This document shows positions 32,166 to 32,254 of a DNA stretch of 64,000 nucleotides, one piece after another; the stretch's first letter is position 1, and each line of letters begins with the position of its first letter. Both the position numbers and the translations under genes were made by a program. Source of the DNA: Minisyncoccia bacterium. GTDB lineage: Bacteria; Patescibacteriota; Minisyncoccia; Phycocordibacterales; PALSA-1337. The stretch is taken from the NCBI GenBank assembly GCA_038211765.1, contig JBBQVG010000001.1, positions 1,837-65,836 of the forward strand, given 5' to 3'. The notes under the pieces are model-generated. The model was not told the origin of the DNA and made no database searches. It saw nothing but the letters and a program-made list of their open reading frames with translations.

Positions 32166-32254
32166 GGAGAGATGGCTGAGTGGTCTAAGGCAGCGGTTTA
32201 CTAAACCGCCGTTCCCTCACGGGAACCGTGGGTTCGAATCCCACTCTCTCCGCA
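32166..32254 (+). tRNA. type-II tRNA with Ser-like identity elements but anticodon loop UUACUAA (nominal anticodon ACU)
   Basis: Aligns position-by-position to tRNA-Ser: acceptor GGAGAGA/TCTCTCC, D-arm TG-GCT-GAGTGGTCTAA-GGC, anticodon stem GCGGT/ACCGC, long variable arm GTTCCCTCACGGGAAC, T-arm GTGGG-TTCGAAT-CCCAC, G73. The anticodon is unusual. Confidence 0.6.

Follow-up and report, generated by a model that had tools for sequence, protein, structure and literature searches.

The window (the whole stretch of 64,000 nt of DNA that was analysed) encodes an intact serine tRNA with the anticodon ACU, which is an ordinary tRNA in all respects but its anticodon. With a probability of roughly 70%, this tRNA-Ser(ACU) is a functional chromosomal elongator tRNA that acts as a dedicated reader of AGU beside tRNA-Ser(GCU). 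A second AGU reader was among the options considered in the initial annotation of this DNA, and it is the option favoured by the evidence presented below. The remark made there on the great rarity of A34 in tRNAs other than tRNA-Arg(ACG) is correct. Genes for tRNAs with an unmodified A34 were called very rare in all domains (PMC11066159). Moreover, ANN anticodons in split codon boxes were, with the exception of Ile, called universally missing, and ACU is among eight anticodons listed as absent from bacteria, archaea, eukaryotes and phages, the phage tRNAs being stated to lack the same genes; the bacterial sample of that study comprised about 100 species from 13 listed phyla, with neither CPR nor Planctomycetota among them (PMC8007984). 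In the literature covered, to which the main 2018 survey of bacterial A34 tRNAs, a possible place of mention, did not belong, no description of a natural bacterial or phage tRNA-Ser(ACU) was found.

Applied to the whole window, ARAGORN reported four RNA genes, i.e., a tmRNA, tRNA-Ile(UAU), tRNA-Ser(GCU) and tRNA-Ser(ACU), the last of which was called as tRNA-Ser(act) at 32166-32253 (Table 1). The Rfam model RF00005 matches 32166-32252 over the full model with 56.4 bits (gathering score 29; E = 1.7e-9) and without any non-canonical pair being flagged, and this score is about equal to the 57.0 bits of the neighbouring tRNA-Ser(GCU). The type-II, serine-like tRNA with a 3-bp D stem, a long variable arm and G73 that had been proposed is thereby confirmed by ARAGORN, Rfam and the sequence itself; the proposed interval 32166-32254 starts at the right nucleotide and ends 2 nt beyond G73. 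Both programs arrive at the same register of the 7-nt loop and at the anticodon A34-C35-U36, as had been read before, and neither of them shifted the register, substituted a conventional anticodon or scored the gene as a pseudogene. The tRNA-Ser(GCU) noted 1.7 kb upstream is real as well.

Next to the stems and loops listed in Table 1, the sequence contains U8 and the standard GTTCGAATC T loop. No CCA is encoded after G73, where the bases are CAA. The serine identity elements are present, comprising G73, G1-C72, G2-C71, A3-U70, C11-G24 and the 6-bp variable arm. A tRNA-Sec, which has an 8- or 9-bp acceptor stem, a short T stem and the anticodon UCA, was ruled out by the 7-bp acceptor stem, the 5-bp T stem and the anticodon ACU.

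Table 1. Features of the window around tRNA-Ser(ACU), and groups of loci from other genomes that carry this tRNA.
Feature	Position in the window	Strand	Basis and remarks
tmRNA	19977-20342 (ARAGORN), 19977-20344 (Rfam)	+	ARAGORN; Rfam, 116 bits
tRNA-Ile(UAU)	27193-27266	+	ARAGORN
RecG helicase gene, left synteny anchor	27322..29625	-	Pfam
tRNA-Ser(GCU), conventional AGY reader	30401..30489	+	ARAGORN, Rfam; CCA encoded; 1765 bp upstream of the ACU gene
tRNA-Ser(ACU)	32166..32252	+	87 nt, type II; ARAGORN, Rfam, covariation
Acceptor stem, tRNA-Ser(ACU)	32166-32172 / 32245-32251	+	GGAGAGA/TCTCTCC, 7 bp
D arm, tRNA-Ser(ACU)	32175-32191	+	3-bp stem GCT/GGC
Anticodon arm, tRNA-Ser(ACU)	32193-32209	+	stem GCGGT/ACCGC
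Anticodon loop	32198..32204	+	U32-U33-A34-C35-U36-A37-A38 (TTACTAA, 7 nt)
Anticodon ACT	32200-32202	+	ARAGORN, Rfam, sequence
Variable arm, tRNA-Ser(ACU)	within 32210-32227	+	6-bp stem, 4-nt loop
T arm, tRNA-Ser(ACU)	32228-32244	+	GTGGG-TTCGAAT-CCCAC, 5-bp stem
G73 discriminator	32252	+	sequence
AT-rich palindromic hairpin CAATTTTTTCGAAAAATTTG	32253..32272	+	directly 3' of G73; repeat family D6
Variable accessory DNA, ACU tRNA to TyrRS	32273..43722		GC falls to 0.39
Second copy, tRNA 3' end and hairpin	37323..37346	+	23/24 nt match to 32249-32272
Tyrosyl-tRNA synthetase (TyrRS) gene, right synteny anchor	43723..44916	+	Pfam; blastn of window against census loci
CPR-type census loci			47/80
Planctomycetota census loci, one nearly invariant type			17/80
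Polynucleobacter and other Burkholderiales census loci			10/80
Scattered census loci			6/80
Planctomycetota loci			L001, L004, L012, L015, L018, L020, L024, L028, L034, L037, L045, L052, L065, L067, L069, L075, L081

The tRNA gene lies in a bacterial chromosome, as the window contains rpsE, secY, adk, map, ndk, a type IV pilus cluster, the tmRNA and the genes for FtsH, UMP kinase, RecG and TyrRS, and the genome is that of a Patescibacteria (CPR) bacterium. The closest relatives among the fetched loci are metagenome-assembled genomes (MAGs) deposited under the names Patescibacteria, Paceibacterota, Parcubacteria or Saccharibacteria; L053 ranks first with 79% nucleotide identity over RecG. As these deposited names conflict, the assignment is kept at the level of Patescibacteria (CPR). 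A known prophage was ruled out, since the region from 26 to 36 kb of the window gave no megablast match to deposited phages. The order of genes in relatives is RecG, tRNA-Ser(GCU), tRNA-Ser(ACU), TyrRS and PilM. The distances differ: the ACU tRNA is separated from TyrRS by 0.36-3.7 kb in relatives and by 11.5 kb here, and the spacing between the GCU and the ACU tRNA, which is 181-345 bp in several relatives, is enlarged by extra DNA to 1.7 kb. Since the position between Ser(GCU) and TyrRS is conserved in relatives, the tRNA is not island-borne; it is a resident gene around which variable DNA has accumulated, and this DNA is not part of the tRNA.

This accessory DNA flanks the ACU tRNA to the left and to the right (30493-32165 and 32273-43722), and merely scattered pieces of it are common to any fetched locus. 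The right-hand part encodes an NYN protein, an Ig-like protein, a DUF4238 protein, TspO, a SOUL protein, an ABC transporter, a PG-binding protein and a Gly-rich repeat protein; the NYN protein is nuclease-like, the SOUL protein is haem-binding and the Gly-rich protein (42176-43684) carries internal repeats. In the left-hand part, the open reading frame 30608-31273 has a weak match to the PADLOC candidate PDC-M04A. An integrase or a defence system behind the flanking DNA was considered and rejected: Pfam searches of the open reading frames of the window found no integrase in the accessory DNA around the tRNA, and the PADLOC hits are weak or generic (NYN, ABC ATPase, PDC-M04A). The hairpin CAATTTTTTCGAAAAATTTG that directly follows G73 may be a terminator or a recombination site. 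Together with the last 4 nt of the tRNA it forms a 24-nt direct repeat (Table 1), which is absent from every fetched locus and which may be an att-like scar or old insertion edge bounding a 5-kb insert with the NYN, Ig-like and DUF4238 genes.

Two further RNA genes of the window deserve description. The tRNA-Ile(UAU) gene lies just downstream of RecG, likewise in most of the 80 RecG-anchored loci introduced below. The anticodon UAU was listed as lost in prokaryotes (PMC8007984). The codon ATA is used at 14.7 per thousand here and at about 24 per thousand in relatives, and with this tRNA present and ATA in use the clade therefore probably reads AUA without the lysidine (TilS) system. The tmRNA has a predicted tag AKSTVSPYFGAKDFAFALV, which ends in ALV and not in the usual LAA-type terminus, and a homologue with 75% identity is found in L021.

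The conservation of the tRNA was assessed in a census of 185,579 species, one genome per species, which were scanned for a pattern with just three fixed elements, AAGGC for the D arm, T-ACT-R for the loop and GGTTCRAATCC for the T arm. The pattern matched 92 loci, 80 of which are ARAGORN-confirmed tRNA-Ser(ACU), and these 80 were grouped by sequence type and deposited label (Table 1). Among the CPR-type sequences, 28 tRNAs from 28 species are 91-98% identical to the tRNA of the window by a raw measure that counts any encoded CCA as a mismatch, whereas the flanking DNA of FtsH, RecG and TyrRS in these loci is only 65-79% identical at the nucleotide level. The tRNA of L053 is identical to that of the window once trimmed to positions 1-73. 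Such a difference between tRNA and flanks is the pattern that would be expected under strong purifying selection and inheritance together with the neighbouring genes.

As the census pattern forced the anticodon, conservation of the anticodon is not inferable from the census, and therefore separate loci were fetched via the RecG protein alone. This tRNA-blind set comprises 80 metagenomic loci with 55-76% amino-acid identity in RecG, the common arrangement of which places tRNA-Ile(UAU) downstream and tRNA-Ser(GCU) upstream of RecG. A second type-II tRNA is found near the GCU gene in nine of these loci, at a distance of 181-7066 bp, and its anticodon is ACU in all nine. Two of the nine (L162 and L191), the sequences of which lie outside the census pattern, show compensatory substitutions of paired bases in four stems (acceptor, D, anticodon and T) and keep the loop UUACUAA exactly, so that the comparison with the tRNAs of relatives proposed in the initial annotation reveals a common loop. 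Furthermore, RNAalifold recovered the type-II cloverleaf from 37 non-redundant ACU tRNAs of all sources. Double compensatory changes occur at 21 of the 25 pairs, the pairs of the variable arm covary, and G1-C72 and G2-C71 are invariant, with A3-U70 being present in 36 of the 37 sequences. Because the RecG-anchored ACU orthologues keep the loop while the stems covary, these alignments show, at the level of sequence, that the gene is not a pseudogene and that selection acts on the anticodon loop.

These data also bear on the idea of a decaying or recently mutated copy (e.g., by G34A in a GCU gene) that sits without function on a genomic island. In favour of this idea, low-GC accessory genes flank the tRNA and the direct repeat is att-like. 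However, the Rfam score equals that of the GCU tRNA and there are no mispairs, the identity over 28 species exceeds that of the protein genes, the gene occupies a fixed chromosomal site between GCU and TyrRS, and its stems change in a compensatory manner. As the bodies of the two tRNAs are just 67% identical, the ACU gene is not a recent G34A copy of the resident GCU gene. Decay, which had been one of the first suggestions for this gene, is thus highly improbable. The gene is distributed patchily: in 24 related loci with a GCU gene, no ACU gene lies nearby although 5 kb or more of sequence is available upstream, so in these genomes it is dispensable or located elsewhere.

The meaning of the AGN codons was read from the alignment columns of 80 RecG orthologues. 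Columns of AGA and AGG are mostly Arg (0.67 and 0.54, respectively), with Lys second, and in columns of AGT and AGC Ser is the most frequent residue (0.33 and 0.26), followed by Thr, Gly and Asn. The FtsH of the window, aligned to a solved structure, contains just 3 AGT, 1 AGC, 1 AGA and 1 AGG codons, too few for such a check. Because the RecG columns give Arg for AGR and Ser for AGY, the AGN codons are, as judged from these alignments, standard in their meanings and the genetic code is unaltered. A recoding tRNA, i.e., an amber (CUA) suppressor in a shifted register or a tRNA that reassigns the AGN box, has a negligible probability. It is true that CUA can be read at loop positions 35-37, which had led to the suggestion of a misfolded loop or of a suppressor shifted by one. 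However, positions 34-36 read ACU in a canonical 7-nt loop with U33 and the purine A37 in both tools, the loop UUACUAA is unaltered in orthologues with changed stems, and TAG is the commonest stop codon of long open frames in the window (21 of 47). The amber suppressor was therefore rejected.

Codon usage was examined in addition. The window uses AGT at 14.0, AGC at 7.3 and AGA at 6.7 per thousand. Its AGU fraction of 0.66 ranks first among the U fractions of the 16 NNY pairs, marginally above CCY (0.64) and TCY (0.63), and is thus no outlier, and among the RecG-anchored loci the AGU fraction is 0.58 in both the ACU-positive and the ACU-negative ones. The usage of AGU and AGC, which had been named at the outset as a point to inspect, could be determined and gave no clear support for AGU reading, so it was dropped as an argument.

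For the decoding of AGU by tRNA-Ser(ACU) we propose the following mechanism. SerRS does not read the anticodon. It would charge tRNA-Ser(ACU) with serine via the long variable arm, G73 and the acceptor and D stems, and charging is to be expected because the elements that are read by SerRS are all present. A34 would most likely stay an unmodified adenosine, so that ACU and AGU could form three Watson-Crick pairs and little or nothing else in the AGN box would be read. The tRNA-Ser(GCU) would cover AGC and would read AGU by G-U wobble only, and the ACU gene would add a dedicated AGU decoder without a change of the genetic code. We infer from this that the gene is transcribed, that the tRNA is serylated, carries an unmodified A34 and t6A at A37, and decodes AGU only.

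The unmodified state of A34 is judged from the sequence of the loop and from data on the same anticodon in E. coli. An orthogonal tRNA with the anticodon ACU decoded AGU with 9.4% and AGG with 0.36% there, AGC and AGA being below detection, and the discrimination of U against C was at least 95:5; these values refer to a foreign tRNA body and to the E. coli TadA, and a CPR deaminase could behave differently (PMC11066159). Sequencing of this tRNA revealed no inosine at position 34. The E. coli TadA was shown to act on ANG anticodons alone, and the modification was blocked if position 32, 37 or 38 was altered (PMC11066159).

The alternative that A34 is converted to inosine by TadA or a relaxed relative of it, so that ICU reads AGU, AGC and more weakly AGA, deserves attention at this point, although it seems quite unlikely. 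The one common A34 tRNA of bacteria, Arg(ACG), is always converted to I34, and in some bacteria a second A34 tRNA is modified as well (PMC8007984, PMC11066159). Moreover, U33-A34-C35 and A37-A38 equal the loop of the TadA substrate, and the specificity of a CPR TadA may differ from that of E. coli. On the other hand, the full substrate loop C32-U33-A34-C35-G36-A37-A38 is not matched, as tRNA-Ser(ACU) differs from Arg(ACG) by U instead of C at position 32 and by U instead of G at position 36, and the E. coli enzyme left ACU untouched (PMC11066159). ICU would furthermore misread the Arg codon AGA as Ser, a codon that is in use here and the columns of which are Arg, and it would make tRNA-Ser(GCU) redundant, which is nevertheless retained beside ACU in these reduced genomes. 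No deaminase gene is found among the open reading frames of the 64-kb window. In a broader form, the A34 of natural ACU tRNAs in CPR bacteria, Planctomycetota and phage-infected cells might be enzymatically modified, either to inosine by a relaxed deaminase or to an undescribed derivative, a notion to which we give little credence. If so, either a new kind of wobble chemistry would have to limit decoding to AGU and AGC, or Ser/Arg ambiguity at AGA would have to be tolerated, and the use of ACU instead of GCU by phages would be explained.

The preferred reading, an AGU-decoding elongator tRNA, also has to be weighed against a role outside of ribosomal decoding, in which the tRNA would, for example, donate serine to a tRNA-dependent transferase of cell-wall or lipid synthesis, or would chiefly be a target of recombination. 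The patchy occurrence of the gene among relatives, the variable DNA on both sides together with the duplication of the tRNA 3' end and hairpin 5 kb away, and the codon-usage signal that was not found would all be compatible with this. We consider it very unlikely, though, because the T loop and the overall structure are those of a standard elongator, substitutions are seen in the stems but not in the anticodon loop, a pattern indicative of selection on decoding, and the phage copies described below lie within ordinary decoding arrays, where they replace Ser(GCU).

The tRNA-Ser(ACU) is not restricted to the CPR bacteria. In the Planctomycetota, 17 species-level MAGs, mostly from freshwater and with about 58% GC, carry it as a single 89-nt sequence with four variants that differ at one or two positions; in L018 the gene adjoins MoeA and MoaC. 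Because these carriers have 58% GC, AT-richness alone is not enough to explain the retention of the gene. The isolate Polynucleobacter sp. JS-Safj-400b-B2 contains Ser(ACU) on four contigs (L006, L071, L073 and L087), the body resembling that of Ser(UGA). The contexts differ, with P63C-domain and HNH genes in related loci, which therefore suggests a spread on mobile DNA. A Dechloromonas MAG (L055) contains a Ser-like tRNA from which the 3' side of the anticodon arm is deleted (…GGTCTACTGGCATACC…) and for which the ARAGORN result is ambiguous, and this one is probably a truly decayed ACU copy.

Furthermore, ARAGORN identified Ser(ACU) in at least 129 loci of uncultivated phages with 70 distinct sequences. 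Among the matches listed, the loops read UUACUAA or CUACUAA, the median GC content is 0.40 and Ser(GCU) is also present in only one of the 129 loci. The viral Ser(ACU) typically lies in arrays with Thr(UGU), Asn(GUU), Glu(UUC), Gln(UUG), Lys(UUU), Arg(UCU) and Ile(UAU), and judging from this gene content ACU fills the AGY slot of the phage tRNA arrays in place of Ser(GCU). Other A34 tRNAs occur in the phage ACU arrays (L093-L142, L229-L325) as well, i.e., Leu(AAG) six times, Arg(ACG) four times and Ser(AGA), Phe(AAA) and Asn(AUU) twice each, of which Phe(AAA) and Asn(AUU) are likewise ‘missing’ anticodons of split boxes. No Ser(ACU) was found in cultured phages by blastn with a phage-type ACU tRNA, a query that matched only Ser tRNAs with similar bodies; the six deposited phages inspected carry UGA or GCU.

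The presence in phages raises the question of origin. Entry of the ACU gene into the CPR lineage from a phage tRNA array, an idea that is compatible with a decoding function, appears unlikely. In its favour, phage and Planctomycetota ACU tRNAs contain an identical 17-nt anticodon stem-loop, phage arrays often include ACU and the distribution within the CPR clade is patchy. However, the best phage ACU tRNA is just 79% identical to that of the window, the acceptor, D and T arms of which match a CPR tRNA-Ser(UGA) in L051, and many different stems exist among the viral ACU tRNAs. The anticodon arm of the window is a generic Ser arm, since viral contigs combine it with ACT (32 cases), GCT (12) and TGA (6). 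A common anticodon stem as the sign of a constraint or of a single origin was therefore rejected: GCGGU/ACCGC carries GCU and UGA as well, and the viral ACU stems are diverse. Given this diversity and the Ser(UGA) arms of the CPR tRNA, fixation of the ACU anticodon has taken place on more than one Ser body. The Ser(UGA) and Ser(ACU) of L088 have an identical 5' half up to the loop. L088 and L051 are both Magasanikbacteria MAGs, and their patterns point to anticodon switching or gene conversion among Ser isoacceptors.

As a summary, tRNA-Ser(ACU) is a natural and conserved exception to the rule, stated as universal in textbooks and reviews, that split codon boxes lack anticodons beginning with A. 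It is present in no fewer than 47 species of CPR bacteria, in 17 MAGs of Planctomycetota, in several Burkholderiales and in at least 129 loci of uncultivated phages. These organisms offer natural systems for testing the avoidance of adenosine at the wobble position and the behaviour of an unmodified A34 in a split codon box. Moreover, tRNA surveys without CPR bacteria and uncultivated phages miss real anticodon diversity, and for annotation it follows that a Ser(ACT) call from such a genome is not to be dismissed as a pseudogene.

Among known systems, the bacterial tRNA-Ser(GCU) of the serV type is similar in being a type II tRNA with G73, a long variable arm, U36-A37 and serine identity that serves the same codon box; it differs by G34 instead of A34, with which the reading of AGC is expected to be lost in tRNA-Ser(ACU), and by its body. 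The tRNA-Thr(AGU) of Mycoplasma capricolum is likewise natural and encoded in a reduced genome, and its wobble A stays unmodified (cited in PMC11066159). Its four-codon family box tolerates broad reading, whereas the box of ACU is split between Ser and Arg with the risk of missense incorporation. With the tRNA-Arg(ACG)/TadA system (I34) the ACU tRNA shares a genomically encoded A34 and the loop elements U33-A34-C35 and A37-A38, and Leu(AAG) and Thr(AGU) of Leuconostocaceae and some Firmicutes are similar as extra genomically encoded A34 tRNAs; in contrast to tRNA-Ser(ACU) with U36 and U32, all of these decode family boxes, and G36 is the last anticodon base of the known TadA substrates. The engineered orthogonal tRNA from M. 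jannaschii (PMC11066159) has the same anticodon ACU but is an artificial, Tyr-charged archaeal body in E. coli, while the tRNA described here is natural, conserved and of serine identity. Finally, unlike the ‘universally missing’ or ‘prohibited’ tRNAs to which it was assigned (PMC8007984), the ACU tRNA is present and conserved here.
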